From: a bacterium
Lineage (GTDB): Bacteria; UBA8248
Reading direction: 5' to 3'
Length of the DNA stretch: 64,000 bases
Assembly (NCBI GenBank): GCA_965200245.1
Contig: CBDATS010000004.1
Span: forward strand, 32,001-96,000
Part shown: piece after piece, positions 7,689 through 54,936 of the stretch
How positions within the stretch are numbered: position 1 is the stretch's first letter
Layout: each line of letters opens with the position of its first letter
The notes under the pieces: model-generated
Told to the model about the DNA's origin: nothing
The model's database searches: none
The model's input: only the letters and a program-made list of their open reading frames with translations
Program-made: the position numbers and the translations under genes

Positions 7689-10826
<3,138 letters not shown>

Positions 10827-10879
10827 GCCGTCATTCCGGATGATTTCAACACGAACCGGGCCCGCTCGCGCCGCAACAT

Positions 10880-11329
10880 CTAATAAGGACTCATACAGTG
10901 GAGCCCGAGGCCAATGCAGGCATTTGGAATCTTGATTTTGCTAATGGTATCAGCGGGCACTTCGTGAGTGACGACAGTGCAGTTGTGAGCAAGCGCGTGC
11001 GCGACAAGCCAGTAGTCGGCGACCTGCAGAAAGGTCGTGACCGCGGCAGGCTGGTATTCATTGTCGCTCGCCCAATCGCTGACAGTGCGTAGCGCCAGTA
11101 CTACCGCGTTATCCGGTCTCAAGAAGAAGTCGCCACCGCGTGCCTCGGCCCAATCCGCCAGTTCGTCTCCCCCGACATGTAGCTCGTCAGCGACTTTCTC
11201 GATGCTCGCAACCTTTCCCACACGGTTCTGCTCGACCAGCCAATCCCAGAAAGCTGGACAGAAATCGAAACCATAGTGCAGATTCTTGGCCTGGATGAAA
11301 ATATTTGCGTTGAGGATATAATCGGTCAT
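10880..11329 (-). pseudogene. DUF4411 PIN-like protein, premature stop
   Basis: YILNANIFIQAKNLHYGFDFCPAFWDWL, ADYWLVAHA, IKIPNAC; continues [17 protein letters not shown]. The first acidic PIN residue appears as Asn. Confidence 0.75.
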
Positions 11330-12481
11330 TTCATCACCTCGACTTCACGCCCAAGATTGTTAAAGGTTTCGGTCCTGGAAACTCCAAGCATCCGAAAGGC
11401 GTCTCGATAGAGCGTTTGTCCTTCGAGCGTACTCACTACAAGCGCGCGGGCGAACCGGCGACTCACACGCGCCAGCGTCATGCTATAGAAATCGCCGCCT
11501 CCGCCTCCGCCTTGAGAGGAGGTTCGCAGACGTTTGATTTCTTCTGTCCAAGCATCCTCAAAACACTCGCGGGTCAGCCAGCCTGCATCAAGCAAACGTC
11601 TCAGAATGACCAACGTGCTAACCTTGAAAATCCGCGCCAGACAGGACAGGGCGTTTTGGAGCGGTTCGCCGTCGCGAAGCCTGGCGCGAAGATCCGCAAG
11701 CGGCACGAGAAGCTCCGCCGCCACGGCGTTGCACCACACCTCCTCATGTCGGAAACCCGGTCCCGGCACGGTCTCAAGGATCGACAAAGCTGATGCTCCA
11801 AGCCAGATATGCGCGAGTTCATGGGCGAGCGTGAACATCTGCGCAGCCTTCGTGTCCGTGCCGTTGACGAAAATCAGCGGCGCGAGGGGATCAGACAGCA
11901 CAAAGCCGCGAAACTCGGCGGGATCGAGACGCCGGTGGTTGTTATTCATCACAACCCCGCTCACCATGACGAGCACACCGGCCTCGTCGGCCTGGCGGAT
12001 GAACAAACGCAAAGCGTCGTTCCAGTTCGGACACTTACGGCGGGCCGCGACATCGAAGCCGAGCGTTTCGCGCATTTCTGGGGCGACGGTTTCAGGCGGC
12101 GTTTCGATCGTGGCGCTGCCGACGAAGCCCGGTTCGGGCTGACGGGTGACCCGGACGAAATTCCGATACCAATTTTGCCGCTCCTGACAGGTGTAGATCG
12201 TGTCCAGGAGGTTCGGACTCGGGCGCGTTACGGCCTGCCCGGCAAAGGTTCGGAAGTCCGGAATGGGCACGGAATTCCTCTGGTGGCTCCGAGAGGAACA
12301 GATAACCGACCGGCGCATGGACAGCGCGTGCGAACGCCTCCACCTGCTTCAGGGTGGGCTGCTCCTGGCCGGCCTCCCACACAGGCAGCTTTTTGAATTT
12401 CACCGCCATATCTCTCTGTGCAACCCCGGCGCGCTCGCGTGCCCAGCGGAGGAGTTTGGGATTGACAGGGACACGGATCAT
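11326..12481 (-). pseudogene. XRE-HTH plus ImmA/IrrE metallopeptidase, frameshifted near 12275
   Basis: MIRVPVNPKLLRWARER...PVGYLFLSEPPEE in one frame; PIPDFRT...FTLAHELAHIWLG...CNAVAAELLVP in another. Confidence 0.85.
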
Positions 12482-39726: not shown

Positions 39727-40242
39727 ATGCGCATCGTCATCGACGGATACAACCTCATCCCCGCCATCCCCGAACTCAGGCGCGTGCTCCATCAGGACCT
39801 CGAAGCCGGACGCGAAGGATTGGTCGGGATGCTCGGGAACTATCGCCGAAATTCCAGCGGCAATCCCCGAATCACCGTCGTTTTCGACGGCAAACCCCAT
39901 CACGATCACGGGGGCAGTAAAAACGCGGGCGGCATCGAAGTGCTGTTCTCAAGGCACGAAATCGCGGATGTCCTTATCCTTCGCCTCCTTAAGGACCGCT
40001 ACAAGGGCACCGTTCTCGTCACTTCAGACAGGATGCTCGGCGAGGCGGCTGCTCCCTTCGCCTCGGCCGTTGTGAAAACGGGAGAGTTCCGGGACCGGCT
40101 CTACCAAGCGGCCTTCATGGAGGAAGATGACCAGGAGGATGAACCACCCAGGACACCAAGGCGCGATACGAAAAAGAAGGGCAACCCCAGACGCGCACCC
40201 AGAAAAAAGCGCAGGCGGAACCAGCAACTCAAGAATCTTTGA
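39727..40242 (+). CDS. YacP-like NYN-domain protein
   Basis: IVIDGYNLI, VVFDG, ADVLI, LVTSDR, basic tail KKGNPRR. Confidence 0.88.
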   Translation: MRIVIDGYNLIPAIPELRRVLHQDLEAGREGLVGMLGNYRRNSSGNPRITVVFDGKPHHDHGGSKNAGGIEVLFSRHEIADVLILRLLKDRYKGTVLVTSDRMLGEAAAPFASAVVKTGEFRDRLYQAAFMEEDDQEDEPPRTPRRDTKKKGNPRRAPRKKRRRNQQLKNL

Positions 40243-40367
40243 GGCAGATTAGCCTCAGACGCACCTCCTCTGTCATCTCAAACAATATCCAACCAGTAGA
40301 AATTATCGGGATTATCTGAGGGATGATGATCTGATGAGCAATCGGGACTTATGGGATGAAATAACAG

Positions 40368-41059
40368 GGGAGTTATCTACTTGAATCCGCAAGTCTTCAT
40401 ATCTTGATTTTTGCGTTTCCGGGTGTATCGTTTACGTCACAGGCGGAATTGCTGCCAGAACCGGTGCATGGGCCGCCTTCCTCCAATCAGGCCATACACC
40501 GGATCTGACTGTAACTCAGTGGGGCACTTTCGTACATAATTTCCTTTTTAGAAAGCATCATCCCAATCATAGTATGCGCCACTAGCGGCTTCCAACTGTT
40601 CCTCGGTGAGCCGGGACGGGGGCGGAAGGACGAGATAGCTGTTCTCGGCGTCGTCTTCCATCACATGCAGGTTGAAATTCTCCGGCATCGTTACCCCGAA
40701 CTCCTCCGATATCACGGCCTTCGGTTCAGAAATCAGACGGGCGCGGAACTCCTCACTGTCGCCTGCCTTCTCGATCAGGTGCTCGCGCATCTCGGTGACG
40801 GATTTCATTCTGGTCTCCTTTCCATGAGGAAATGAGCATGAGTGGATACCCCCGATGCCTTTTTTGCATCGTTGCCATGAACAGGGTATGGGACATTCCG
40901 GTGGGAAAGCAAGAAATTTTTGACGTTTACTGGTGAGAAACAGGGTTCCGCCCGGAAGCCCGTCCGTGTGTCCCCTGCTCTCCCGGGAAACCGGCGGCCG
41001 AAGGCTTCGTTTTTCCAAATTCAGGTATTCAGACTTGTGGAATGAAGTATGTAATTCCC
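40368..41059. mobile_element. 692-bp non-autonomous element, copy 1 (no target duplication)
   Basis: Appears identical to 52522-53213; terminal inverted repeats match 23/29; no transposase. Confidence 0.88.
40548..40808 (-). CDS. NHLP (nitrile-hydratase-like leader) RiPP precursor, copy 1
   Basis: 86 aa: LIEKAGDSEEFRARLISEPKAVISEEFG...LHVMEDDAENSYLVLPPP...LTEEQLEAASG-AYYDWDDAF; AAGGAG RBS. Confidence 0.88.
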   Translation of the reverse strand: MKSVTEMREHLIEKAGDSEEFRARLISEPKAVISEEFGVTMPENFNLHVMEDDAENSYLVLPPPSRLTEEQLEAASGAYYDWDDAF

Positions 41060-41062
41060 AAA

Positions 41063-41932
41063 TTATTCGGAGCGCAGTCTGGGGTCGAGTGTATCGCGCA
41101 CGGCGTCGCCGAAGAGGTTGAAGGCGAACACCGCGGCAGTGATGGCGAGTCCCGGAAAAACGGGAATCCACGGTGCGCTTTCGGCATATTCCTCCGCACC
41201 TCCCTGAAGCATCAGCCCCCAAGCGGGAGTGGGTTCCTGGACGCCCAGCCCGAGATAGGAGAGCGAGGCTTCGAGCAAGATGGCCCGACCGAGAAACGAA
41301 GTGAGCATGATCAGATACGGAGCCATGACGTTGGGAATCATGTGCCGACAGATGATGCGAACGTGCGCGAAACCCAGTGCGCGTGCGGCGTCCACGTAGG
41401 GAATTTCGCGAATCGCCAGCGCGCTCGATCGTACCACGCGGGCGCACCGAGGGATGAGCGGAATCGTGATTGCCAGGATCACGTTCTGCGTCCCCGTGCC
41501 GAATATGGAAACCACCGAGAGCGCCATGATGATGAGCGGAAACGAGATGAAAATATCCATGAAACGCTGGAAGATGAGGTCGAAGCGTCCACCGAAATAA
41601 GCGCTCCCCACGCCCAGGATGAGGCCTGCGGTGGAACCCAGGACGGAGGCCGAAAACCCCACGAAGAGCGCTGTTCTGGCACCGTAGACGATACGCGTAA
41701 AGATGTCGCGCCCGAACTGATCCGTCCCGAACCAGTGCGCGGCACCTGGTGCGAAGTGCATACTGTCAAAAGAATTCTGTACCGGGTCATAGAAGGTGAT
41801 GATCTCGGCAAAGGCGGCCAGAAGTATCATCACCAGGACGGAGCAGGCACTCACGGCACCCAGCGGTTTTTTCCGCGCCGTATCCTTGATCCTGTCAACC
41901 CATGAGCGTTCGGGAAGATTGTCGAAATCCAT
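41063..41932 (-). CDS. Peptide/nickel ABC permease (DppC-like)
   Basis: HWFGTDQFGRDIFTR, YVDAARALG, EASLSYLGLG, FNLFGDAVRDTLDPR; start uncertain. Confidence 0.92.
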   Translation of the reverse strand: MDFDNLPERSWVDRIKDTARKKPLGAVSACSVLVMILLAAFAEIITFYDPVQNSFDSMHFAPGAAHWFGTDQFGRDIFTRIVYGARTALFVGFSASVLGSTAGLILGVGSAYFGGRFDLIFQRFMDIFISFPLIIMALSVVSIFGTGTQNVILAITIPLIPRCARVVRSSALAIREIPYVDAARALGFAHVRIICRHMIPNVMAPYLIMLTSFLGRAILLEASLSYLGLGVQEPTPAWGLMLQGGAEEYAESAPWIPVFPGLAITAAVFAFNLFGDAVRDTLDPRLRSE

Positions 41933-41975
41933 TTCGGAGACGGCGAGGTTGCCCGGAGACGCGATGATCGATCTC

Positions 41976-42947
41976 CTAGCTGTAGCGTATGCGCGGGTCA
42001 AGCCACGCATAGAGAATATCGATGAACAGGTTCGTCAAGATGAAGACGACGGCCACGAGCATGACGAGGGATTGCGTCATGGTGTAGTCATGGTTCGTCA
42101 CCGATTCGACGAAGAGTTTTCCCAGGCCGTTGAGGTTGAAGACCTGCTCGGTCACCACCAGCCCGCCCATCAGGAAGGCGAATTCCAGGCCGATAATCGT
42201 CGCCACGGGCAAGAGCGAATTCTTGAGCGCATGGCGGTTGATGATGAGTTTCTCCAAAAGTCCCTTGGCGCGGGCGGTACGTACGTAATCCTCTCGCAGG
42301 ACTTCCAGCAGGGCCGAGCGCGTCATGCGCGTTGCGACGGCAGAATAGCGGTAGCCCGTCGCGACGGCCGGCCAGATGAGTTGGGAAATATTCGCCACCG
42401 GATCTTCCCATATCGGCGTGTAGTGAATCGGCGGCATCCAGGGGTTTCCAAAGAATTTCTGCGTCATGATCAAGAGGCCGAGGATAATCAGGATGCCCAG
42501 CCAGAAGGATGGCATGGCGATGCCTGCGATGCTGAACGAACGCACAACGTAGTCGATCCAGGTATCCTGTTTGATGGCGGAGATCGTGCCCAGCGGAATG
42601 GCAATGATGGTAGCCGTGAGCGTCGCCATGATGGCGACCTGAAGCGAAAGTTCGAAGCGCAGACCGATCTCATGCAGTATCGGTTTGCCCGTCCACATGG
42701 ATTTTCCCAAGTCGAACGTGAAGAATCCGGTAATGAAATCGATGAACTGCACGAAGATGGGTGCGTCTATCCCCAGATTCTTCTGGCACGTCGCTATCGC
42801 TTCCTTGTCCACGTACATGCCCGTGCCAGCCATGCGGAGTTCACACACGTCGCCGGGAATCAGGCGAAGCATGAAGAATACCAGCACCGCCGCTCCCAGC
42901 AGCGTAGGGAACATCAGCAGGATTCTCTTGATTGTGTACTTATACAC
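41976..42947 (-). CDS. Peptide/nickel ABC permease (DppB-like)
   Basis: RLIPGD, DLGKS, EDYVRTARAKGL, DILYAWLDPRI. Confidence 0.93.
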   Translation of the reverse strand: MYKYTIKRILLMFPTLLGAAVLVFFMLRLIPGDVCELRMAGTGMYVDKEAIATCQKNLGIDAPIFVQFIDFITGFFTFDLGKSMWTGKPILHEIGLRFELSLQVAIMATLTATIIAIPLGTISAIKQDTWIDYVVRSFSIAGIAMPSFWLGILIILGLLIMTQKFFGNPWMPPIHYTPIWEDPVANISQLIWPAVATGYRYSAVATRMTRSALLEVLREDYVRTARAKGLLEKLIINRHALKNSLLPVATIIGLEFAFLMGGLVVTEQVFNLNGLGKLFVESVTNHDYTMTQSLVMLVAVVFILTNLFIDILYAWLDPRIRYS

Positions 42948-43010
42948 CTTTCGCGCCCTTGCATTTCAAACGATTGGCAACTCCCGGAACCGAAAACCCC
43001 AGGAAGCGTC

Positions 43011-43043
43011 TCCACCGTCGCCTGGTGTCCAGGCGACGGTGGA
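43011..43043. terminator. Perfect 15-bp hairpin after the SBP gene (stabiliser or attenuator)
   Basis: TCCACCGTCGCCTGG-TGT-CCAGGCGACGGTGGA. Confidence 0.7.
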
Positions 43044-43054
43044 AGTGATGCAGC

Positions 43055-44677
43055 CTATTTTTCGATCCAGACGTTGTCCAGGTGCTGGTTCAGGTAGTGG
43101 CTCGGCGCTATCTTCCAACCTTTCACATAGCTACGGTGTGGGTTGATCTTGTACCACCAGAGCGTCACGAATTGATGGGCCATCTCATCGAGTGCGCGCT
43201 TTTCGTACTTGCGCATGATGGCGCGCTGCTTGTTCACGTCGGGCTCGCGGTTCATCTGATCGTACCATTTGTCGAGCTGGCGATCGTGGTACTGCGCGTA
43301 CTGGTTGCCCGCCCTGTCGTCGGAGATGAATTTCGATACATCCACGAGCGGGTTAATGACCGACTGGCAGTTGAAGTCGATGGACACGTCGAAGTTCTTC
43401 TTCTTACGCAGCGTGGCATAGAAAGGTCCGGAGGGCTGCACCCACTGCTTGACCTTCAGGCCAATTTTGCGCCACTGGTCGATGACCCAGGTGCCCACAA
43501 CCTTATAGGGCTGGTCCACACCCCGGTTGTGCAAGGAGAACTCGAAGCCGCTCGGATAGCCAGCTTCTTTCAGCAGCCTTTTCGCCTCGGCGCGGGATTT
43601 GTTGATGTCCGGCCAGTAGCCGGCGATCTTGGTCAACTCCTCTTTCGTCGCCGCCAGAGGGTGTTTCGGGAAAACCACGCCGCCCACGGTCTTCACGATA
43701 GCGATGCGCGAGAGGTACTTCGATCCGCCCCAGCGATCGATTGCAAGCGTCAGTGCCCGGCGCACGCGTGCGTCGTCGAAGGGTTTGCGCTTGTGGTTGG
43801 GCGTCACCATGAGGTTGCAGTTCCAGTCGCTCTCCTGAACGGTGAGCTTGTCGCCCAGCGCTTTTTTCAGGTCGTCACGCGCCTTGGGCGGAAATCCGCG
43901 GAATTCGATGGCCGCGCGGTCGCCGCGGATGGCCTGGAGGCGGATCGCCATCTTGGGCGCAGAGATCGCTCGGTAGCCGTCGAGATAGGGTTTGCCCTTG
44001 TGGTGATATTTCTCATAGCGTTTGCCCTCGACGAATGCGCCCGGCTGGTGCTGCACGAAGCGGAACGCGCCCGTGCCGTTCACGTTCTTCTGGTGCCATT
44101 TGTAACCGTGCTTGTCGAGGTCAGCCTTCGAGTAGATGAAGTTGTAGGGCAGCGCCAGCGCAGGGACGAAGGCACCTGTGGGATATTTCAGCTTGAACAC
44201 CAGCGTCCGGGCGTCGGGTGCGGTGACTGATTTCACCATGCTGAAGAAAGCCTTGCGGTTGCTCTCAATGCCTTTCGGCGGATTGACAATCTTGTCATAC
44301 GTCGCCTTCACGTCCGCCGAGGTGAGTTTCTGGCCGTTGTGGAACGAGATGTCGTCGCGGATCTTGAAGGTGTACTTCGTGTGTCCTTCGGTCGGCTTCG
44401 GTACGCCACCTTCACACACATCGCAGACGAAATCCGTCGGTGATGCAGGGTTGTCGGGATTCACTCGAATTAAAAGGCTGTAAAAGGGACGAATGGGGTG
44501 AATCATCCCGAAAGTGGATTCGATATGGCCGTCGTAAGAGGGAATCTTGCTTCCGACGACAAACTTGAGCGTGCCACCCTTCTTGGGAGCCGCTCCGGCG
44601 GGCGGGGCAAAGCTCCACGCCGCCAGGGCGAGCAGTGACGCCCCTACAACCAGGAATACAAAACGAGTCTTCCACAT
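43055..44677 (-). CDS. ABC substrate-binding protein, family 5
   Basis: Signal peptide, FHNGQKLTSADVKAT, GTGAFRF, PFDDARVRRALTLAIDR. Confidence 0.92.
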   Translation of the reverse strand: MWKTRFVFLVVGASLLALAAWSFAPPAGAAPKKGGTLKFVVGSKIPSYDGHIESTFGMIHPIRPFYSLLIRVNPDNPASPTDFVCDVCEGGVPKPTEGHTKYTFKIRDDISFHNGQKLTSADVKATYDKIVNPPKGIESNRKAFFSMVKSVTAPDARTLVFKLKYPTGAFVPALALPYNFIYSKADLDKHGYKWHQKNVNGTGAFRFVQHQPGAFVEGKRYEKYHHKGKPYLDGYRAISAPKMAIRLQAIRGDRAAIEFRGFPPKARDDLKKALGDKLTVQESDWNCNLMVTPNHKRKPFDDARVRRALTLAIDRWGGSKYLSRIAIVKTVGGVVFPKHPLAATKEELTKIAGYWPDINKSRAEAKRLLKEAGYPSGFEFSLHNRGVDQPYKVVGTWVIDQWRKIGLKVKQWVQPSGPFYATLRKKKNFDVSIDFNCQSVINPLVDVSKFISDDRAGNQYAQYHDRQLDKWYDQMNREPDVNKQRAIMRKYEKRALDEMAHQFVTLWWYKINPHRSYVKGWKIAPSHYLNQHLDNVWIEK

Positions 44678-44752
44678 AAGAAATCTCCTTTAGGTGCTCC
44701 GTAGAAATAAATACACCTCGAATCGCAGAACGAAACAGCGTCTTCAAGAATC

Positions 44753-45787
44753 TCATACTTCCGTACAGGCCACCCAATGGCCTGGTTTTATCTCCCGTAA
44801 TACAGGAATTTCCCTCGAACAATTCTCCACGGCGACCGGGCATCGGGGATGAAACACGCAGCCCGAAGGCGGATTTATCGGGCTCGGTACCTCTCCCGTG
44901 ACAATTCTGATGTCCCGTCCCTGCTCGACCTCCGGATCCGGCACCGGAACGGCTGAAAGCAAAGCCCTCGTATAGGGATGCATGGGATTATCGTACAACT
45001 CATCGCAATCCGCCAACTCCACGATTCGGCCCAGGTACATCACAGCCACGCGGTGGCAGAGGTGTCGAACCACACTCAAATCGTGCGCAATGAACAGATA
45101 GGTGAGGTTGTACTCGCCCCTCAAATCCTCGAGCAAATTGATGATCTGGGCCTGGATGGAAACGTCGAGGGCAGAGACGGGCTCGTCGCAGATGATGAAT
45201 TCGGGCTTGAGGCTCAAAGCGCGGGCGATTCCCACGCGCTGGCGCTGTCCGCCGCTCATCTCGTGGGGATACCTGTCCGCCATCTTGGGGTTGAGGCCAC
45301 ATACGCTGAGCAGTTCGTTGATTCTTTGTTTTCTCTTCCTGGCGTCGGGTTCTATGCCATGGACGTACATGGGCTCGTCAATCATTTCGCCGATCTTCAT
45401 GCGCGGGTTCAGCGAACTGCAGGGATCCTGGAAGATGACCTGAATTCTCTGCCGGTATTCACGCAGCGCCACGTGATCGAGTTTCGCAAGGTCCACGCCC
45501 TCGAAAAAAATCTCGCCTTCCGTGGGGCGTTCGAGCTGGAGGATGCACCTGCCCGTCGTCGTCTTGCCGCAGCCGCTCTCGCCCACGAGACCGAGCGTCT
45601 CGCCACGTCTGATGTGTAAATCCACGCCGTCGACTGCCTTCACGAGGCCGACGACCTTGTTGAATACAATCCCCTCGGTGATGGGAAAGTACATCTTGAG
45701 TCCCTTGACTTCCACGAGCACCTTCCCCGCCTCTCCGTTGCGGGAGAGTCGGGTGTGGCTTTCCAAGACGGGCGCGTCGGGAGTCAT
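44753..45787 (-). CDS. Peptide ABC ATPase (DppF-like)
   Basis: [42 protein letters not shown]. Confidence 0.95.
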
Positions 45788-45791
45788 CCTC

Positions 45792-46781
45792 TTATCCTCT
45801 CATCGTTTCGAGGTTTTCTTTTTCCCAGCAAGCCGATAGATGGCCGTTTCCCACCATCTCAAGCGGCGGAATCTCACTCGCGCACCTGTCCACGACGAAC
45901 TTGCACCGGGGCAGAAAAGAACAGCCCCCGCCCAGCCGCGTGAGGTCGGGCGGCTGTCCGTCGATGGGGTCAAGGCGCTTTTGTCTGGGCTGATCGAGTC
46001 TCGGCACCGAACTCAGCAACCCCAAGGTGTATGGATGCCTCGGTTCACGGTAAATGTCAGCCGCCAGACCGCGTTCAATGATCTTTCCGGCGTACATGAC
46101 GTTCACGCGATCCGCGTAGCGGGCCACCACGCCGAGGTTGTGTGTAATGATGATGAGCGCGACGCCCATGCGTTTGGTGAGGTCTTTCATCAACTCCAGA
46201 ATCTGAGCCTGAATGGTGACGTCCAGGGCCGTCGTCGGCTCATCAGCGATGATGAGCTTGGGCTCGCAGCAAAGCGCCATCGCTATCATCACTCTCTGGC
46301 GCATCCCACCGCTCAGGTGGTGCGGGTATTGCCGGAGGCGCCGCTCGGGCTCGGAGATACCCACCAAGCGAAGATATTCGACTGCTTTTTTCTCCGCATC
46401 GGCCCTATCCATGCCGAGATGGTGTTCCATGGTCTCGGTAAGTTGCAGCCCGATGGTCAGAACGGGGTTCAGGGAAGTCATGGGTTCCTGGAAAATCATG
46501 CCAATCTGTCGACCCCGGATGTCTCTGATCTGCATGTCGTCGAACTGAAGCAGATCGTGATCCTGAAAACGTATTGCTCCGCCCACGATGCGGCCAGGTG
46601 GATTGGGGATGAGACCCAGAATGGAGAGTGCACTGACGGATTTCCCACAGCCCGACTCGCCGACTATCGCCACCGTCTCGCCTTCCTCCACGTCATAGGA
46701 GATGCCGTTGACAGCTTTAACGATGCCGGAGGAGGTGAAAAAATGCGTTCTCAAGTCTTCGATTTCAAGAAGCGCGCTCAA
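45792..46781 (-). CDS. Peptide ABC ATPase (DppD-like)
   Basis: [32 protein letters not shown]. Confidence 0.95.
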
Positions 46782-46963
46782 AAATCCCTACCCTTCCAAA
46801 ACCAACCGATACAAATCGCAAAAATGTTATTTATTCTCGGGGGAATCCAAAGTGCCGAGAACCCTAAATATTGTTGAATGCAAAGTCAAACGCCAATTTT
46901 TATCTTTTGTGAGACCTTTCTCCGGAATTGCATGGATACCCGAAACGCTGCGCAAGCATCGTT

Positions 46964-49060
46964 TCAGGTGATGATGAGGGCATCGGCCACCAGGCATCCC
47001 CTACCCTTCTCGCGCAAGAAAACGGGGTTCAAATCCATTTCCTTGATTTGCTTGCGATAGGCGAAAGTGGCGTCTCCCAAGAGGCAGATGATCTCGCCGA
47101 GGGCTTTGACATCCAGTGGCCTGCGGCTACGGTGGCACCTGAAAATATCCCTGCACCGGAGTTCGTCAATCATATCGCAGGCGTCATCGAGCAAAAGAGG
47201 TGCCGTTCGCGCGCTCACGTCTCCCAGGAGTTCCACGTCTCTCCCGCCGAGACCGACTGTCACTATCGGGCCGAACTGTGGATCTCGCTTTACCCCAAGG
47301 ATGAACTCGACACCGTCCATCACTTGCTCCTGAAGCAGATAACCTTCCAGCGCACACTCCTCCCGGAGACTCGCGATCTCTGCGAGCGCGCCTTCGAGAG
47401 ACACCTCATCGCCGAGACCTGTTTTGACCAGCCCCCATTCCGACTTGTGGTGAATCGTCGAGGACACACCCTTCAATACCAGCGGAAAGTGCAGGTCGTG
47501 GGCCGCAAACCGTGCTTCCTCGATCGTCCGGCAGAATCGATGGGCCACAACAGGCAATCCGAAATCAAGAGCGAGCGCCAGAGATTTCGCCTCGTTCAGC
47601 GCCCCTGCGTCAGACAGTCTTTCCGCAATCGAGGGAGACGGCACAACACTGGCAGGAGGCGCGCCCTTCGCTTTTCTCCTCAGAATTTTTGCATACCGCA
47701 CTAGGGCCTCCGCCGCGCGGGCACAGCCGGAAATCGATTGAAAAGAAGCGATTCCCTCTCTGGCCAGAAGCCTGTGCGCATCCTCGGCATGGGGATTGAA
47801 ATAGGTCAGCATGGAAACGCCGGGATTCGTCGGCTTGAGTCTTACGATGGGTTCCACCCCCATCTCGGGCTTGAACTGCGCGCTTGAACCCACAATGGAG
47901 ATCACTGTATCGAACGATCCGCTACCCAGAAAAGATTCGAGAAAATCCGAATAGAGATGAATGTCCGCGATGGTGGTATCGAGCGGATTCACTATCCGCC
48001 CGAATCCGGGGTATTTTGCCTTGAGCCGGGCATGGAGAGCCTCATCCACCTCGGCGACTTCCAAGCCGAGTGCACCGCATTTATCGGCCATCAAGGCGCC
48101 CGCCCCGCCCGTCGTCGTAACGATTCCTACCCTTTCCCCTTCCGGGAGCTTCGAGACGCAGAACATATGGGCAACCTCGAAAAGTGCCTCCAGATCATCC
48201 ACCTGTGTGACGCCCCATCCCCGAAAGAGCGCCTTGTACACCCTGTTCTCCCCCACCATGGCCCCCGTGTGGCTCAAGGCCGCCTTCGCGCCCTCGCGCG
48301 CCTCACCCAGTTTGAGAACAACCAGAGGCTTTTCTCGCTGCAGGGCCTTTGTGAGAACTTTTTTGAGTTTCTCACCTTCGCGCACCCCCTCGAGATAAAC
48401 TGCAATGGCGCGGGTCTGGGGGTCGTCGATCAGATAGTCGAGGTAATCAGAAACTTCCAGATCCATTTCGTTCCCGCAGGAGATGAGATGGCTGAACCCG
48501 ATGCCGCGCTGTGTTGCGCGCGAAAGCAGCGCGCCGCCGATACTTCCGCTTTGACAGACCACGCCAATGTTGCCGGGCAACATCTCCTCAACGTCGAGCG
48601 CGATCAGGCCCGCGAGGTGGAAGTTGTGATGAAAGTTGTGCACGCCCGCCGTGTTTGGCCCGCATACGCGGATTCCGGAATCCCGTGCGATGCGCTGAAT
48701 TTCGGCTTCCAGACGCGTGCCCGTCTCATCCGATTCGGAAAATCCTCCTGTGTAGATGATGGCTGCTCCCACCCCTGCACCGGAGCATTCGGCCAACACG
48801 CCCGCCACACGCTCTCGTCCCACGGTGATGAAGGCGACATCCGGTATCTCGGGCAGCGCATCAAGACTCGGCGAACAGCACAGACCAGCCACATTTTCAT
48901 ATTTGGGGTTTACGGGATAGACCCGGCCCGCAAAGCCATGGCGCAGGAGATTCTTCACCACGCGGCCATTGAATTGCTCCAGGTTCGCCGACGCCCCGAC
49001 GATGGCTATTGATTCAGGTTTCAGAAGGCGCGCAAGGCTCTCTGCGGTTGTGGTCTGCAT
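46964..49060 (-). CDS. ADP-forming acyl-CoA ligase family protein
   Basis: SIAIVGAS, GPNTAG, QSGS, SHTGAM, HKSEWGLV, DPQFGP, EMDLNP. Confidence 0.9.
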   Translation of the reverse strand: MQTTTAESLARLLKPESIAIVGASANLEQFNGRVVKNLLRHGFAGRVYPVNPKYENVAGLCCSPSLDALPEIPDVAFITVGRERVAGVLAECSGAGVGAAIIYTGGFSESDETGTRLEAEIQRIARDSGIRVCGPNTAGVHNFHHNFHLAGLIALDVEEMLPGNIGVVCQSGSIGGALLSRATQRGIGFSHLISCGNEMDLEVSDYLDYLIDDPQTRAIAVYLEGVREGEKLKKVLTKALQREKPLVVLKLGEAREGAKAALSHTGAMVGENRVYKALFRGWGVTQVDDLEALFEVAHMFCVSKLPEGERVGIVTTTGGAGALMADKCGALGLEVAEVDEALHARLKAKYPGFGRIVNPLDTTIADIHLYSDFLESFLGSGSFDTVISIVGSSAQFKPEMGVEPIVRLKPTNPGVSMLTYFNPHAEDAHRLLAREGIASFQSISGCARAAEALVRYAKILRRKAKGAPPASVVPSPSIAERLSDAGALNEAKSLALALDFGLPVVAHRFCRTIEEARFAAHDLHFPLVLKGVSSTIHHKSEWGLVKTGLGDEVSLEGALAEIASLREECALEGYLLQEQVMDGVEFILGVKRDPQFGPIVTVGLGGRDVELLGDVSARTAPLLLDDACDMIDELRCRDIFRCHRSRRPLDVKALGEIICLLGDATFAYRKQIKEMDLNPVFLREKGRGCLVADALIIT

Positions 49061-49097
49061 GGTCAGGAAAATTCCCTAAAACTCATGGCGGATAAAA

Positions 49098-50249
49098 TTA
49101 CGCTTTCGGCGGACGCTGGCTGAAAGGGCGCTCGTAGATGAGGGAGGCCAGGCGGTTTCTCAGAATCTCTGTGGACCCCCCCGCGATGGACCATCCGCGA
49201 ATCTTGCGGTAGAGAAACTCCAGTGGCATTCCGGTCGAAAAGCCATATCCACCGTGAAGCTGAATGGCGTCATCCGCCACTTGGCGCGCCATTTCGTTGC
49301 AGTAGAGTTTGGCGCTCGTCGTCTCCATTGCCGAGGGCAAGCCCGCGCGCGCGTTCGAGAGCGCCCGATAAAGAAGCAGGCGCGCCGCTTCGAGCTTCAC
49401 CCGCATGTCCGCCACCATCCATTGCACTCCCTGAAACTCGCAAAGGGGGCGGCCGAACTGGCGCCTCTCGCTGGTGTGGGCGACCGTCATATCGTAGGCC
49501 GCCTGCGCCAGGGCGAGACAGCGCGTGGCGTTTCCAAGACGCTCCACGTTGAACACGGGCATGAGCACCCGGAAACCCTCCTTATCGACCAGCACGTTCT
49601 CTATCGGCACGCGCGCGTTCTCGAAGTGAAGTGCGCAGTGCGCCTCCCCGCTCATGTAGTGTTCGGTCATTCCCTTCGTGAAGCCAGGCGTTCCCGTTTC
49701 CACCACGACGGCTCCGCAATCGCGCGTCCTGGGGCCGAAGCGGACGTAGACGACGAACAAGTCCGCGTGCGGGGCGTTTGAACTGAAGCATTTCTGGCCG
49801 TTGATGAGCACGCTCTCGCCGTCATATTCCGCCGTCGTTTGCAAGTCCGTGGCCGCCGAACCGGCGTCCGGCTCCGTCATGCTGATGGAAATGATTTTCT
49901 CCCCCCGACAAATCGGTGGCAGGAAGCGTTCTTTTTGTTCGGCAGAGCCCAACTCGTCAATCACACGGATGGGCCCCATATTCCCCATCTGCACTACATC
50001 GCCGCTGTGGGGACACACTTGAGAAACCGCCTCCATGACCAGGCAAGCCTCGAAAATCGATTGCCCTCCTCCATGTGGCTCGGCCACCGTCATCCCCATC
50101 ATCCCGTGCTCGGCCAGCACCTTCATCGAGCGTCTGGGATATTCGCCCGTTCTCGCATAGGAGAAGGCATCCGCAGCAAACTCTCTCAAGGCGAGTTCCC
50201 GGGCCGTCTGCCGGAACAGTCGGTCCGATTCTTCGAGCCTGAAATCCAC
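49098..50249 (-). CDS. Acyl-CoA dehydrogenase family protein
   Basis: SMTEPDAGS, NGQKCF, RRQFGRPL, AIQLHGGYG, IAGGSTEI. Confidence 0.92.
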   Translation of the reverse strand: MDFRLEESDRLFRQTARELALREFAADAFSYARTGEYPRRSMKVLAEHGMMGMTVAEPHGGGQSIFEACLVMEAVSQVCPHSGDVVQMGNMGPIRVIDELGSAEQKERFLPPICRGEKIISISMTEPDAGSAATDLQTTAEYDGESVLINGQKCFSSNAPHADLFVVYVRFGPRTRDCGAVVVETGTPGFTKGMTEHYMSGEAHCALHFENARVPIENVLVDKEGFRVLMPVFNVERLGNATRCLALAQAAYDMTVAHTSERRQFGRPLCEFQGVQWMVADMRVKLEAARLLLYRALSNARAGLPSAMETTSAKLYCNEMARQVADDAIQLHGGYGFSTGMPLEFLYRKIRGWSIAGGSTEILRNRLASLIYERPFSQRPPKA

Positions 50250-51203
50250 GTAACTTCCCCTTCAGTCCATTCAGATGATACCGCGGCGAAATTCCAAATG
50301 CGTCCCCCGACCAGGCGGAGCATTCCTCCAAGACACGCGCGACGGCCCCAAGTTTTACAACACTTTCGATTTTAGGGCGAGGCGACATGCATGCCGGCAC
50401 AGTAGCTCTGGTACGGCAGCATCCCCGCTGATTCCGCTTTGACCGCCACCTGAATCGCTCGACAACTCCCGGATCCATCACCTGCCCAAGAGTCTGTGAT
50501 GACAGCACAAAAGAAGCCTGATTCCACGTCGGTTTCCTAGCTCCCTCATCCAATACTCCACATGTGGACGCCACGGTTGATGCAGGAATGTCGTTTGAAC
50601 GGTTCTGGGTCTTTTCTTTGGCCAGGGGCCGTGTCGTGTGTCCGGCCTCCTGATGCGGCGAGTCACAAGCCGCTGGCCCGGCGCGCAGCTGGTCCGGCTT
50701 GATGATGCGAACCGGAAAGCTCTCCGTCGCATCCGGGTTTTCCCGCTCCCGTCCCGTTGATCGTTTCCCTTTCCCGCTCTTCCGACCCGCTTACATTCCC
50801 GGATGTATCCATATACCAGCGGTTTGGACAGTGGGCACCGGCTTCTTTCTCCCCCGAATGAGCGAGGTGCGCATGATATTCCTCAGAATGACGACTATCG
50901 TGCCGGACGCGCGCTGTCTCAGACTCATCTGGACCATGACGGCAGGGCTCTCTGCGGCACTGAACAATCATCCGACGCCCGACCTCGCCTGGTGATCTGT
51001 ACCTATACTGATTCCACCATGTCTACACGAAATGCATAAGCTCGCTGGCCATTCTCCGAACGGAAAAACGACTCTGCCATCACGACTCAGAGATTTGTAA
51101 TCACGAAATTCATTCCCCCCTGAACTCTTTTTCTTTGAATATTCACCGACTTTCAGATATTTTGGAAAAAGCAAACGAACACTAGGAAAGAGGAGAACGG
51201 ACA

Positions 51204-51704
51204 ATGAATAAACCGTTTGTCGGAATTGTCCTTGCCTTGATGATTCTCGCTTGTTTCGCGCATGTCGCAGAAACGGCAGAGAGCGGAAGCTTCCGCCTCA
51301 TCGAAAACCACAGGCACGAGTTCAGCGTGATGGAACACGCTGACGCCAAGGTCACTGCAGGTCCGATGCACGGAACCGCCACTGTCGTCAAAAGCAGTGG
51401 AGGCCTCTTCGAAGAGGGTGAACACTATATTTCCACTTGCCTGGTCTACGCGCGACGCTCTCGGTTGGGTCTCGACCTGGAATCGGCTTGCAAGTTCACC
51501 AACAATGAAAAAGAGACATTCTACGCCCTGGCCCGGAGGCGAGCGGGCGACACAAAATCGGGTGGTGGCGGCAAGGGCGTCCAGAAACTCATTGGCGGTA
51601 CAGGGAAATACTCAGGCCTGGCCGGAGAATGTCCCTACACCAGCAAGTATCTGCCAGGCAAATGGATTGTTTCTACGGGAGATTGCACATGGAGCAAGCA
51701 ATGA
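51204..51704 (+). CDS. Secreted beta-barrel-like hypothetical protein, paralog 1
   Basis: Signal peptide, GAGGAG RBS, LIGGTGKYSGLAGECPY, four conserved Cys. Confidence 0.75.
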   Translation: MNKPFVGIVLALMILACFAHVAETAESGSFRLIENHRHEFSVMEHADAKVTAGPMHGTATVVKSSGGLFEEGEHYISTCLVYARRSRLGLDLESACKFTNNEKETFYALARRRAGDTKSGGGGKGVQKLIGGTGKYSGLAGECPYTSKYLPGKWIVSTGDCTWSKQ

Positions 51705-51772
51705 TGCCCTGGAGGCTGCGTGGTACTGCCATCTTTCGGACAATGAATCGCATATAACCGGAGATTGCGAAA

Positions 51773-52282
51773 ATGAAAAAACTTGTCCACAGAACCTTCC
51801 TCGCGCTGGTTGTCGCGACCGCCATCGTTTGCGCCGTACCGCTGGCCTCGGCTGCCGAAAGCGGCACGTTCAAACTTCAAGGGTCATACCAACACAATTA
51901 CACTGTGCTGGACTTCGCCGGGTCGAAGATCACCTCGGGTTCGATAGCCGGAACGAGCACCATCATCATGAGTAGAGGCGGCCCATTCACAAAGGGAGAA
52001 CATTACAATGCCGCTTGCGCGGTTTACTCAAAACGCTCCGCCACAGAATTTGATCTCGAAGCTCCCTGCATCCTGTCCAGCAAAGCGGGCGACAAGATAT
52101 ATTTGATGGCGAAGAGACGCAGCGGCAACCTCAAGACGGGCGGCGGCGGCAAGGGCACCCACAAGATAATGGGTGGTACGGGGAAATACGCGGGCATGAC
52201 CGGAACCTGCTCCTACACAACCGCTTATCTGCCAGACCGATGGCTGGTCGTGTCTTCCGACTGTAAGTGGAGCAAGCCCTGA
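51773..52282 (+). CDS. Secreted beta-barrel-like hypothetical protein, paralog 2
   Basis: Signal peptide, IMGGTGKYAGMTGTCSY; colinear with paralog 1. Confidence 0.75.
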   Translation: MKKLVHRTFLALVVATAIVCAVPLASAAESGTFKLQGSYQHNYTVLDFAGSKITSGSIAGTSTIIMSRGGPFTKGEHYNAACAVYSKRSATEFDLEAPCILSSKAGDKIYLMAKRRSGNLKTGGGGKGTHKIMGGTGKYAGMTGTCSYTTAYLPDRWLVVSSDCKWSKP

Positions 52283-52521
52283 CACTCCAGTGACGCGACG
52301 AGAGTCTTATGGAAAAACTGGATGCGCCCGGCGGTCAGGTTGCAGATTAATATTTGGCTTATCGGCACAAGACCTCTCGCCTGCCGGCCCGGATGCAATC
52401 AGCCGAATCGTACCTCCATTCCCCCCTATGGTTTTCAACCTCTCGTTTTCATGCAGATTTGGCGGGCCGCAGCTTAATGAATCTATCAAGCGGCGCGTTC
52501 GAATAAATCACTGAAAATTCA

Positions 52522-53213
52522 GGGAGTTATCTACTTGAATCCGCAAGTCTTCATATCTTGATTTTTGCGTTTCCGGGTGTATCGTTTACGTCACAGGCGG
52601 AATTGCTGCCAGAACCGGTGCATGGGCCGCCTTCCTCCAATCAGGCCATACACCGGATCTGACTGTAACTCAGTGGGGCACTTTCGTACATAATTTCCTT
52701 TTTAGAAAGCATCATCCCAATCATAGTATGCGCCACTAGCGGCTTCCAACTGTTCCTCGGTGAGCCGGGACGGGGGCGGAAGGACGAGATAGCTGTTCTC
52801 GGCGTCGTCTTCCATCACATGCAGGTTGAAATTCTCCGGCATCGTTACCCCGAACTCCTCCGATATCACGGCCTTCGGTTCAGAAATCAGACGGGCGCGG
52901 AACTCCTCACTGTCGCCTGCCTTCTCGATCAGGTGCTCGCGCATCTCGGTGACGGATTTCATTCTGGTCTCCTTTCCATGAGGAAATGAGCATGAGTGGA
53001 TACCCCCGATGCCTTTTTTGCATCGTTGCCATGAACAGGGTATGGGACATTCCGGTGGGAAAGCAAGAAATTTTTGACGTTTACTGGTGAGAAACAGGGT
53101 TCCGCCCGGAAGCCCGTCCGTGTGTCCCCTGCTCTCCCGGGAAACCGGCGGCCGAAGGCTTCGTTTTTCCAAATTCAGGTATTCAGACTTGTGGAATGAA
53201 GTATGTAATTCCC
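52522..53213. mobile_element. 692-bp non-autonomous element, copy 2, with 8-bp target site duplication
   Basis: AAAATTCA at 52514-52521 and at 53214-53221 flanking GGGAGTTA...TAATTCCC. Confidence 0.92.
52702..52962 (-). CDS. NHLP RiPP precursor, copy 2
   Basis: Same 86-aa translation as 40548-40808. Confidence 0.88.
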   Translation of the reverse strand: MKSVTEMREHLIEKAGDSEEFRARLISEPKAVISEEFGVTMPENFNLHVMEDDAENSYLVLPPPSRLTEEQLEAASGAYYDWDDAF

Positions 53214-53249
53214 AAAATTCAGGGTTCCAGTAGCTGAAAATCAAAAGGT

Positions 53250-54887
53250 TCATGGGTTTTCCCACGAAATCGACCCTACAGGAATAGGGCGCGCCCAAAA
53301 ACCATCTTCAGCTTTTTTGACGAAAACATTCACCCGCCAGTTCGCGTCGTCAGATTCTGGATAATCCACCCGAAAATGCGCGCCCCGGCTCTCTGTCCGC
53401 GTAAGGGCGGCCTCCACCACTGCTTGTGCGCTTAAACACATGTTCTCCGCCTCCAGGGCCTCCACCAGCCTCGCTGGTTCGCTGCCCCCGCAACCGGCCA
53501 AGCCGCTCTGGACATCTGCGAGTTCGTCCCTCGCCTCTGCGAGCAGGCCCTCCTCGCGCACGATGCCTGCGTTCTCCCAGCAGATTCGCTTGATCTCACG
53601 GGTAAACCCTACGGCACGGCTCATATTGCCAGAGCGCGCCGCGAGGGCATCGGCATGGCTTCGGGCGAGTGCGGGGTCGAGTTTTCCGCTCGTCTGACGC
53701 GCGTATTCGCTCGCGGCCTTCGCCGCGCGCCAGCCCAGCGTGTGAGCCTCCGTGAAGGCGTTGTTCGAGAGACGGTTTGCCCCGTGCGCGCCGGCACTCG
53801 CCTCCCCCGCCGCGTAAAGGCCGGGCATGGCAGTGGCGCCCGAGCCTTCTATCGGCACCCCGCCCATGAAGAAATGGGCCTTTGGCGTGACAAATATCTC
53901 GCTGCTATGGGGCGAAATGCCCCTCCTGGCGAAGAGTTTCAAGTTGTCCGGCGCAAAATGCTCCAGATACTCAAGCGAGATGCCGGACAGATCCATCTGC
54001 ACGGCACCCTCCACGCCGCCGCCCTGCATGAGTTCGAGATAGACCGCCCGCGCCATCAGATCGCGCGTGGCGGCACCTCCACCGGGCACGTCGCGCAGGA
54101 TGTCCTTTCCATCCCGGTTCAGGAACCGCGCCCCGAGCGGGAACAGCGTGGGCGCCACGACCATATTGCTCTCGGGCCGCTTGATGACGGCCGGATAGAA
54201 CTGCACGAATTCCATATCCGAGAGCGCGAGGCCAGCCCTCAGCACCATGCCGAAGGCATCTCCCGTGATGCCGCCCGCGTTGGTGTTCTCCGCAAAAATC
54301 TGCCCCGCCCCGCCCGTGGCCAGAATGGTGGCAGGGGCGGAAATGGCGTAAATCTCCCCGCTTCTCGTGTGAAAACCCAGGATGCCCCGGCAGACATCCT
54401 CATCCACGAGCAAATCGACGGCCATGATGTTCTCGAGAATGCGCGCCGAATCGGCGTCGAGTTTCCTGCGCAGCGGCCTCGCCACCTCCACGCCCCAGTT
54501 CCTGACCGGGTAGATGCCGCGATCGCGATTGTGACCGCCCTGGGGGTGCAAGTCGAACGAGCCGTCCTCGCGCGTGAGAAAGGGGATTCCCCACTCATAC
54601 AGATCGCGAATCCGCGCGGCGGAATCGGCGCACATGGCATGGGCGACGTCCGGGTGATTGAGGTGGGCACCGCCTTCCAGGGTGTCTTCCAGGAACAGGG
54701 CCGGGCTGTCGTCTGGAGCGAAATTCGCCGAATGTCCCGCCCGGGCCATCACGATGTTGCCCGAATTCCCCGGGAACTGCTTGCAGACCAACAGCGCGTC
54801 CACGCCACTCTCCATGGCGGCGACTGCGGCCGTCATGGCGGCGGGTCCGCCGCCGAGAATCAACACGTCACAGGAGAGGGTTTGCAT
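53250..54887 (-). CDS. Flavoprotein of the fumarate reductase/L-aspartate oxidase family
   Basis: GGGPAA, LATGGAG, DMEFVQFYP, HFFMGG, HGANRL, RTESRGAHFR. Confidence 0.88.
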   Translation of the reverse strand: MQTLSCDVLILGGGPAAMTAAVAAMESGVDALLVCKQFPGNSGNIVMARAGHSANFAPDDSPALFLEDTLEGGAHLNHPDVAHAMCADSAARIRDLYEWGIPFLTREDGSFDLHPQGGHNRDRGIYPVRNWGVEVARPLRRKLDADSARILENIMAVDLLVDEDVCRGILGFHTRSGEIYAISAPATILATGGAGQIFAENTNAGGITGDAFGMVLRAGLALSDMEFVQFYPAVIKRPESNMVVAPTLFPLGARFLNRDGKDILRDVPGGGAATRDLMARAVYLELMQGGGVEGAVQMDLSGISLEYLEHFAPDNLKLFARRGISPHSSEIFVTPKAHFFMGGVPIEGSGATAMPGLYAAGEASAGAHGANRLSNNAFTEAHTLGWRAAKAASEYARQTSGKLDPALARSHADALAARSGNMSRAVGFTREIKRICWENAGIVREEGLLAEARDELADVQSGLAGCGGSEPARLVEALEAENMCLSAQAVVEAALTRTESRGAHFRVDYPESDDANWRVNVFVKKAEDGFWARPIPVGSISWENP

Positions 54888-54936
54888 GAGATCACCTGGG
54901 AAACCGGGCGAATTTTCGTGAAGACGGGATGGTAAT

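Follow-up and report, generated by a model that had tools for sequence, protein, structure and literature searches.

Mobile insertion cassettes (MICs) combine the terminal inverted repeats (TIRs) of an insertion sequence (IS), target-site duplications (TSDs) and one or more passenger genes, and they contain no transposase; examples are the IS231-derived MIC231 of Bacillus cereus and the qnrS2 MIC of Aeromonas (PMC3129680; PMC5444012). The subject of this study is a cassette that occurs twice in a 64,000-nucleotide stretch of bacterial DNA (GCA_965200245.1, contig CBDATS010000004.1, here C4; the whole stretch is called the window and is numbered from its first letter) and whose cargo is a gene for the precursor of a ribosomally made peptide that is modified post-translationally (RiPP). 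Like MICs and MITEs (miniature inverted-repeat transposable elements), the cassette has TIRs and TSDs with no transposase, and would therefore be mobilised in trans. The cargo of known MICs consists of resistance or metabolic genes in one or few copies, whereas here a RiPP precursor is present in 11 complete and approximately 11 partial copies within one 3.7-Mb genome and the core peptide differs with each lineage.

Insertion sequences with passenger genes ('transporter IS') were described for the IS1595 family (PMC3129680, citing Siguier 2009), of which the member ISApl4 makes AT-rich 8-bp direct repeats (PMC12561309). The cassette resembles this family in a TIR that starts with GGGAATTAT, in AT-rich 8-bp TSDs and in the presence of the same TIR on elements that encode a transposase, one of them with passenger genes. 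It differs in that the window element has no transposase and that its own genome yielded no autonomous copy sharing the inner TIR.

Prochlorosin genes of marine picocyanobacteria are reported to co-localise with TnpA_REP transposases, and a link to transposition was proposed to drive their expansion, a proposal for which a later note by the authors leaves causality unresolved (10.1101/2020.03.09.984088). Prochlorosins share with the present family tens of precursors per genome, a conserved long leader of the Nif11/NHLP (nitrile hydratase leader peptide) class, hypervariable cores and many genes located far from the enzyme. In contrast to the co-localised gene for a single-strand (HUH) transposase in that system, the precursor here is inside a TIR-bounded, DDE-type cassette with TSDs, and in place of ProcM the enzymes are likely to be prenyltransferase-fold proteins or a P450. 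The srp ('sponge-derived RiPP proteusin') clusters comprise an NHLP precursor with an LCCCW core, a YcaO enzyme and a brominase, and their precursor genes of approximately 252 bp are reported to be highly transcribed in sponges (10.1101/2023.06.09.544420). Common to the srp clusters and the present system are sponge-associated bacteria and NHLP leaders, and the LCCCW cluster of a same-genus genome (G010) has the srp core. The window's genome differs from proteusin and srp-type thiazole/oxazole-modified microcin (TOMM) systems, which are marked by a YcaO cyclodehydratase and cores rich in Cys, Ser and Thr, by its 53-aa YcaO remnant, its nearly Cys-free cores and the placement of precursors on mobile cassettes.

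With a probability of about 0.75, the element is a non-autonomous, IS1595-derived MIC that bears a complete NHLP precursor unit and is moved in trans, its cores being matured by shared enzymes. MICs from an IS family with passenger genes are a known kind of element; what is new here is the cargo, the number of copies and the exchange of the core in each copy. Literature searches on MITEs and MICs with RiPP precursors, on NHLP with transposable elements and on prochlorosins with transposases turned up no precursor gene located within a TIR element, beyond the general MIC kind and the association of prochlorosins with a transposase. A preliminary description of this DNA, made from its letters without database searches, likewise knew of no example.

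Copy number and target-site duplications

The two copies in the window are identical base for base over 695 nt (40368-41062 and 52522-53216). The element proper measures 692 nt, with GGGAGTT at one end and AATTCCC at the other. As inverted repeats, its ends agree at 23 of the initial 29 positions, and homology stops exactly at GGG/CCC. The only family match inside the element is an 86-aa NHLP precursor, and there is no transposase. The preliminary description had reported the identical copies, the 23/29 inverted repeats, a perfect 8-bp duplication around copy 2 and a sole cargo equipped with a ribosome-binding site (RBS) and a downstream hairpin, all of which were reproduced.

The genome (3.68 Mb in 15 contigs, 95.8% complete with 8.1% 'contamination') contains many more copies. 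A blastn search with the element gave 48 high-scoring segment pairs and a profile of the element ends identified 42 sites. A strict TIR pattern (GGGAATTAYNTACTTNAWTCCRCA, at most 2 mismatches) identified 31 sites, compared to 0 for the reversed control pattern and 0-3 in each of 22 genomes of the same genus. Eleven elements of 599-1005 bp are bounded by two TIRs. The 300-nt flanks of these are unique, bar one flank that is 97% shared with another locus. Approximately 11 further loci have one TIR (about nine with only the upstream TIR and two with only the downstream TIR). The copy number is far above the two noted at the outset.

The 8-nt sequences on either side of the two-TIR elements match at 8/8 positions in three elements, at 7/8 in three and at 6/8 in two. 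Among shifted controls drawn from the same flanks (n = 1320), a match of at least 6/8 was reached in approximately 1%, compared to eight of the 11 elements. The duplicated targets are AT-rich and intergenic, as in AAAATTCA, AAAAATTC and TATTTATT. Movement has been recent, since identity reaches 100%, 99.7% and 99.9% in three pairs of copies from different loci; the other pairs are only 79-90% identical, so that several lineages are present, each with recent movement. From these data, it is clear that repeated transposition of the cassette family has taken place in this genome, with 8-bp duplications as its mark, and the cassette is spread to about twenty sites. The proposal that the element is transposable is borne out by these duplications and by relatives in which both window sites are free of the element, as described below.

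Both window copies lie directly downstream of a minus-strand gene, in agreement with the earlier statement that they are intergenic and just 3' of operons on the same strand; across the family, this position is found for only seven of the 11 two-TIR elements (crude open reading frame (ORF) calls). The long cassettes (958-1005 bp; C4:570771-571728, C8:198493-199450, C2:243327-244331 and C15:315994-316998) have the precursor and the 3' arm separated by an additional conserved module (~225-290 nt), in which a tblastn search detected no prenyltransferase fragments. The element at C2:304598-305596 instead bears two tandem precursor genes.

Assignment to the IS1595 family

Judged by its ends, the element is an IS1595-derived MIC and not a derivative of IS256/ISKra4 as the preliminary description had supposed, because three other records have this TIR on transposase genes of the IS1595 family. 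In every record in which this TIR adjoins a transposase gene, the gene belongs to the IS1595 family (Zn_ribbon_IS1595 and DDE_Tnp_IS1595). A TIR-pattern scan that covered 185,579 species genomes returned 30 loci, most of them in OZ252054.1, a metagenome-assembled genome (MAG) of the Nitrosomonadaceae. The OZ252054.1 element is 2753 bp long and has TIRs of ~63 nt, the first 24-26 nt of which are the same as in the cassette. Perfect AT-rich 8-bp TSDs were found in six of the eight pairs examined. The genes of this element encode a 308-aa IS1595 transposase, a DNA methylase-like protein and a 242-aa protein. Among metagenome contigs, the TIR adjoins homologous transposase ORFs in WASW01070698.1 (E = 9e-130) and JGIcombinedJ30088_10104136. 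The GGGAATTAT ends and the 8-bp repeats also appear to fit the ISNwi1 group of the IS1595 family, with the end motif ggnnatTAT. An autonomous element with the same ends, which the preliminary description had named as something to look for, thus exists in other organisms, and none with the same inner TIR was found in the own genome.

A single intact transposase of the IS1595 family is encoded in the own genome (C14:1779-2777; PF12760 and, at 134.9 bits, PF12762), to which the 308-aa transposase of OZ252054.1 is 43% identical. The C14 element likely ends with GGGAATTATAC... and GGGAGTTAT.... Homologues of IS1595 transposases are present in 17 of the 22 same-genus relatives; no long inverted repeats were seen at these IS1595 genes, two of which begin with GGGAATTATATAC. 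The same ends also bound transposase-less elements of 729 and 1090 bp with unrelated small cargo in two same-genus genomes. No NHLP-like ORF was found in 39 TIR-carrying loci of other genomes or in 12 metagenome loci, and a leader DNA pattern gave 0 matches in metagenome contigs.

Several minor observations concern these elements. At least eight copies of the OZ252054.1 element are present (L053 5188-7941 and seven pairs in L057-L070), and their cargo is possibly a restriction-modification pair. The same TIR start occurs in MAGs labelled Oxydemutatoraceae, Arenicellales, Gammaproteobacteria and Fibrobacteria. The two transposase-less same-genus elements (L071 5057-5785 and L087 1501-2590) have AT-rich cargo of small ORFs of 84-155 aa. 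The C14 element (C14:1703-3088, L052) is on a 10-kb contig, and its transposase is followed by an 84-aa ORF with a weak match to Cas2 (E = 2.8e-4, below the cut-off).

Precursor genes, leaders and cores

The precursor of the window cassette scores above the cut-off of 50.9 bits for TIGR03793 (leader_NHLP) and also matches the Pfam family NHase_alpha (Table 1). A jackhmmer search of the genome identified ~35 NHLP-like ORFs at ~28 loci in addition to the true nitrile hydratase alpha subunit. A protein search gave 36 matches here compared to 0-7 in each of the 22 same-genus genomes, 15 of which had any match.

Fifteen copies share the same leader type (type A). Their mean pairwise nucleotide identity is 0.87 in the leader (234 nt), 0.66 in the upstream region (255 nt) and 0.39 in the core (variable length), where shuffled cores give 0.37. 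The leader has a dN/dS of ~0.34 (104 pairs). These sequence comparisons demonstrate purifying selection on the leader and wholesale replacement of the core from copy to copy, and in them the variant cores that the preliminary description had thought worth seeking were found. The leader is 78 aa long and ends in a G-A, G-G or G-S motif in 15/15 type-A copies. Nucleotide homology halts exactly after this motif and resumes 20-30 nt past the stop codon in the two-TIR copies. The cores are 3-15 residues long, such as YYDWDDAF, YWM, EWVWH, GYLWPY and QYDPFGGRIP, and have Tyr at position 1 or 2 in 14/15 copies. Trp, Tyr and Phe together account for 24% of core residues compared to 5% of leader residues. 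The cores are rich in Tyr, Trp, Asp and Gly, and Cys makes up 1 of 164 core residues. Such a composition fits selected peptides better than run-on debris.

Candidate partners encoded elsewhere

The genome has one C39-peptidase locus (C8:219599-225625), which encodes NHLM_micro_ABC1 (902 bits, cut-off 853), ABC2 (684 bits, cut-off 709) and a short HlyD-type protein. In G010, such an exporter is grouped with a YcaO/TOMM cyclodehydratase and with a precursor whose last residues are LCCCW. This srp-like cluster (L135, C1:3816000-3832000, at 1054-11690) comprises the NHLP-type ABC exporter, the YcaO/TOMM enzyme and the LCCCW precursor together with a 456-aa protein, which has an NHLP-leader-like amino terminus and an alpha/alpha-toroid-like domain, and a 798-aa nucleotidyltransferase-like protein. 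The window's genome keeps a 318-aa toroid homologue beside its exporter (37% identity; C8:217754-218710) and has lost the YcaO; the 798-aa protein was not found in it. The YcaO fragment that is left (C15:100900-101064) has a one-TIR cassette precursor (core YRLDIF) on one side and a prenyltransferase-fold gene on the other, a position which hints that cassette precursors were once in, or inserted into, an srp-like cluster. Around three precursor loci, a hunt for maturases returned only transporters and housekeeping domains.

A cytochrome P450 gene (C2:3839-5128) sits between one cassette and an NHLP precursor with the core NLYY, and the precursor is followed by a gene for a 357-aa protein. The trio of P450, precursor and 357-aa protein recurs in G002 only, with a P450 of 69% identity, the core IYY and a 342-aa protein of 58% identity. 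In the window's genome, the group formed by the cassette, the P450, the NLYY precursor and the 357-aa protein (C2:3316-6745, L136; C15:1-2523) is present twice, inverted and 100% identical, across the starts of C15 and C2. This doubling may be a genuine inverted duplication or may stem from an ambiguity of the assembly.

The 357-aa protein was modeled with a predicted local distance difference test (pLDDT) score of 91.5 and a predicted template modeling (pTM) score of 0.90, and the model is composed of repeated alpha-alpha-beta-beta units. Its top fold matches in the Protein Data Bank (PDB) are all ABBA prenyltransferases, with PagF first (E = 7e-6) and LimF, PirF and KgpF also present, at template modeling (TM) scores of 0.4-0.58 and 8-14% identity. 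None of 75 aligned members of the family (0/75) matched a prenyltransferase family in a Pfam scan, and a profile of the family against PDB sequences gave nothing meaningful; the family comprises 671 cluster representatives. What the predicted fold has in common with cyanobactin PagF, LimF and KgpF is an ABBA-fold protein encoded directly after NHLP precursors with short aromatic cores. The difference is that the candidate enzyme family here has no Pfam model and such low TM scores and identities. In the PalX/PalQ system an NHLP precursor serves a prenyltransferase, and the fold of PalQ is not ABBA (PMC10853753).

The genome contains eight full-length matches to the 357-aa protein (three interrupted by an in-frame stop, one truncated at a contig end) along with three short fragments. 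Most of these paralogues directly follow NHLP precursors, which are non-cassette precursors and not the window copies. A complex prediction of a prenyltransferase-fold protein with a cassette precursor had a score of 0.02, which counts neither for nor against binding. From gene content and fold prediction, it is plausible, as the preliminary description had inferred, that the cassette-borne precursors are served by trans-acting enzymes, with the exporter, the ABBA prenyltransferase-fold paralogues and the P450 as candidate partners. The cassette also points to an uncharacterised ABBA-fold family that lacks a Pfam model.

Proposed mechanism and alternative explanations

The cassette may be considered in terms of two ~30-nt TIRs around one NHLP-precursor expression unit, which would consist of an upstream region of ~210 nt, an RBS, the leader, the core and a 3' hairpin. 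The cassette would be moved by a transposase of the IS1595 family that is provided in trans and binds the TIRs, and each copy would be transcribed from its own upstream region or via read-through. The common leader would then hand the variable cores to shared enzymes encoded elsewhere. Before export, at least one of at least eight ABBA-fold paralogues and/or the P450 would modify the Tyr/Trp-rich cores. The only NHLP-type ABC exporter would then cleave the precursor behind the Gly-Gly-type motif by means of its C39 domain and carry the peptide out. The net effect would be a transposon-driven peptide library of one leader and many cores.

More tentatively, the cassette might be not just a parasite with a gene on board but a vehicle that builds and reshuffles a combinatorial peptide library in a sponge symbiont, where every transposition installs a self-contained unit of promoter, leader and core, replacement of the core at the cleavage motif yields new products and a few promiscuous trans-acting enzymes (the ABBA-fold prenyltransferases, the P450 and the C39 exporter) process all of them; this extension is possible and rather doubtful. 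If true, the combinatorial cassette would be a transposon-based answer to the expansion of 'one leader, many cores' RiPP repertoires like the prochlorosins. How genomes acquire tens of scattered RiPP precursor genes whose leader is shared and whose cores are unrelated is an unsettled question, and here the link to transposition is physical and readable. With a precursor inside a TSD-flanked cassette, copies that are 99.7-100% identical and 36 matches against 0-7 in relatives, the question therefore becomes testable. Genome mining that seeks precursors beside their enzymes will miss such libraries, and repeat-masking of 'MITEs' can hide genuine natural-product genes.

Several explanations that leave out a transposing IS1595-type cassette were weighed. 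As the two window copies are 100% identical and just 12 kb apart, in a bin with 8.11% 'contamination' and some duplicated contig ends, a single copy might have been placed twice in the contig by the assembly. This was examined with Logan contigs of four public runs aligned on window positions 50800-55200; the runs that hold this stretch are labelled sponge metagenome or coded organism. Unitigs of the DNA runs X1 (study P1) and X3 (study P2) pass from the left flank of copy 2 to a point 30 nt within the element, and others start 27 nt within the element and continue into the flank on the right of copy 2. The element unitigs also have loose ends at 52522 and 53216, where the letters are those of copy 1's flanks, left and right respectively. 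Unitigs specific to the element are 1.4-2.5 times as deep as the single-copy flanks, and the two sites differ in their flanks, each with orthologues in relatives. Since X1 or X3 may be the source of the assembly itself, at least one of the runs is independent. The repeat is not an assembly artefact, because all four element-flank junctions occur in contigs of two studies, and the single copy that would have undone the preliminary description was not seen; a doubled placement is regarded as extremely improbable. Spread as dispersed paralogues by segmental duplication or recombination, with conserved untranslated regions that merely resemble inverted repeats, would account for the ~8 precursor loci without a TIR and the ~11 with one, and NHLP precursors reportedly occur far from their enzymes (Haft et al. 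2010). It would not account for the TSDs in eight of the 11 two-TIR elements against ~1% of controls, for the same TIR on transposase-bearing elements with TSDs in other phyla and around unrelated cargo in two same-genus genomes, or for homology that ends exactly at GGG/CCC, and it is considered very unlikely. A derivative of a Mutator-like IS would also be expected to look similar at its termini, since GGG ends and 8-bp duplications are found in the IS256/ISKra4 families. However, all three TIR-adjoining transposase genes are of the IS1595 family (no dedicated scan of the genome for IS256-type transposases was made), and both the Pfam matches of the C14 homologue and its 43% identity to the OZ252054.1 transposase argue for that family, so this origin is given next to no credence.

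A selfish cassette with decaying cargo is a stronger competitor, and it is nevertheless judged unlikely. Here the element would be a real IS1595-type MIC with a hitch-hiking precursor acquired a single time, the peptides would have ceased to be matured and exported and the cores would be debris that inexact events left at the gene's 3' end. The two-TIR copies have no maturase within or next to them, the genome retains just the 53-aa fragment of YcaO, and a search for the 798-aa partner from the genus cluster was negative. In 3/11 two-TIR copies the ORF is damaged at its 3' end; the nearly identical copies at C4:570771 and C8:198493 have lost the Gly-Gly-type end, and C4:1517641 has lost its stop codon. 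In addition, the cleavage motif is the exact point at which nucleotide homology breaks off, in ~9 loci for good, and three of the prenyltransferase-fold paralogues contain an in-frame stop. Against decay stand the leader dN/dS of ~0.34, an exporter that is intact and above its cut-off, contigs of RNA libraries that cover the core and ORFs that are mostly intact with a stop 3-15 codons past the motif. Random run-on would also not give Tyr at core position 1 or 2 in 14/15 copies or an aromatic content of 24% compared to 5%.

The reading of an IS1595-derived MIC moved in trans, with cores matured by shared enzymes, is weakened by the missing maturases, the YcaO remnant and the damaged ORFs, and by a number of further observations. 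A search of the genome for SPASM radical-SAM genes found none. The flanking 8-nt sequences match at only 4/8 positions in 2/11 two-TIR elements and at 2/8 in 1/11. About half of the precursor loci have one TIR or none and, as they stand, cannot be moved by a DDE transposase. In the own assembly, TIR blast, the profile and nine solo TIR-like sites failed to reveal a transposase enclosed by this exact TIR. The ends of the C14 element share 9 nt with the cassette TIR (GGGAATTAT), or 11 at the left end with one gap, and no TSD was found around it; since it shares just 9 nt of TIR, the true helper may be unassembled, lost or on another element. A sigma-70 scan of the element found no promoter upstream of the precursor gene, so that the promoter is proposed from conservation only. 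The RNA evidence consists of contigs, which are strandless and may reflect DNA carry-over. Finally, no joint that skips the element, as expected for an empty allele, was present in the run contigs, which drop rare variants and thus say little on this point.

The two copies in the window

The features of the window cassettes and the ABBA-fold paralogues are given in Table 1. Copy 1 is situated between a YacP-like NYN gene (39727-40242, plus strand) and an OppC-type permease gene (41063-42010, minus strand), the stop codon of which faces the element. Its flanks lack a direct TSD (AATAACAG versus AAATTATT, 2/8). To the left of copy 1, at a distance of 60 nt, a TIR-like start is present (GGGATTATCT, 40308-40317), and the 8 nt before it (AAATTATC, 40300-40307) match the right flank AAATTATT (41060-41067) at 7/8 positions. 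The segment 40300..40317 may thus be a scar of an older insertion, with a leftover TSD and TIR start, into or beside which copy 1 arrived, and this might explain why copy 1 lacks a duplication of its own. Copy 2 is placed 37 nt past the stop codon of an FAD flavoprotein gene (53250-54887, minus strand).

Table 1. Positions of the cassette features in the window and of ABBA-fold paralogues in the genome.
Feature	Position	Strand	Remarks
Cassette copy 1	40368..41059	- (precursor gene strand)	100% identical to 52522-53213; flanks joined to element in X1, X3 DNA contigs
Copy 1 TIR, 3' side of precursor gene ('L' end)	40368..40396	.	GGGAGTTATCTACTTGAATCCGCAAGTCT
Copy 1 TIR, 5' side of precursor gene ('R' end)	41031..41059	.	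Reverse complement GGGAATTACATACTTCATTCCACAAGTCT
Copy 1 86-aa NHLP-leader precursor gene	40548..40808	-	TIGR03793 69.1 bits; NHase_alpha 38 bits
Copy 1 precursor parts	Leader 40575-40808; predicted core YYDWDDAF 40551-40574; stop 40548-40550	-	Split from alignment of 13-15 paralogues
Ribosome-binding site GGAAAGGAGA (holds GGAGA), 5 nt before ATG	40814..40823	-	Sequence
Conserved upstream region, ~210 nt	40824..41030	-	Kept across 9 aligned copies; includes GC-rich block
Strong 3'-arm hairpin, downstream of stop	40454..40509	-	Fold of 40368-40550 (183 nt): -56.4 kcal/mol, z -3.45
Cassette copy 2	52522..53213	-	Precursor gene 52702-52962, core 52705-52728, TIRs 52522-52550 and 53185-53213
Copy 2 target-site duplication AAAATTCA, left	52514..52521	.	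8/8 match with right copy
Copy 2 target-site duplication AAAATTCA, right	53214..53221	.	8/8 match with left copy
ABBA-fold paralogues	C8:325434-326507, C4:1314971-1315963, C15:99069-100121, C5:367018-368022, C8:216389-217402, C2:7371-8393		

Among nine aligned copies, the RBS is conserved as AAGGAGAC in seven and as GGAG in all nine. The upstream region holds a candidate promoter block, TTGCTT (40907-40912) and CATACC (40885-40890) with a spacing of 16 nt. Scans of the element found no T-run terminator and no Rfam family match, with just two chance-level snoRNA hits (E = 0.2-0.9). Part of the hairpin (window 40468-40517, element positions 101-150) has matches of ~50 nt at 78-82% identity elsewhere in the genome (C4:590319, 706371 and 1055335; C5:733779 and 817630; C8:133045) and in three same-genus genomes. 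These matches suggest that the hairpin may be part of a wider small repeat or a shared RNA motif.

The metatranscriptome libraries X6 and X7 of one study hint weakly at transcription of copy 2, whether started in its own upstream region or arriving by read-through. Their contigs extend from the left flank (51480 and 51861) across 52522 to 52803/52804 and include the copy-2-specific core and junction, reaching into the leader. The X6 and X7 unitigs break in the leader because it is multi-copy. Contig depth is 18.7 and 11.6, respectively, compared to 0-6.7 over the neighbouring flavoprotein gene, and in X7 a 44-nt leader unitig common to many copies has a depth of 140.7. Some stretches of the leader and the upstream region were without an RNA contig among those listed, which is not counted as evidence because contigs do not show absence or level.

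Orthologous sites in relatives

Element DNA was not found in the 22 same-genus genomes, bar three marginal matches of ~50 nt to the hairpin region. At the copy-1 site, the flanking genes adjoin in most relatives with a spacer of 29 nt to 3.7 kb; in G018 and G021 a 60-nt spacer without an element separates the same two genes. At the copy-2 site, the right flank is kept in 22/22 relatives, none of which has the element there. In G010, homology begins right at the duplication, TAAATTCA is present once, and the sequence to its left resembles the left flank of copy 2. The exact pre-insertion sequence was not recovered because the relatives are other species at 75-88% identity. Sites without the element, of the kind that the preliminary description had wished to look for, are seen for both window copies in relatives, and none was seen in the run contigs.

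The spacer between the YacP-like and OppC-type permease genes (window 40243-40367; orthologues in L147-L152) is a hot spot of size variation, and other repeats that end in ...TTTTCAACAGCCCC occupy it in several relatives. Upstream of the equivalent of window position 53214, the relatives (L039-L047) have four to five phased GATAAAT-like motifs with a spacing of ~10 nt downstream of the flavoprotein gene. These motifs are preceded by a conserved GC-rich segment (...GCGTGGCAGGATC...CATGGGCCG...), and the cassette targets resemble the AT-rich phased motifs.

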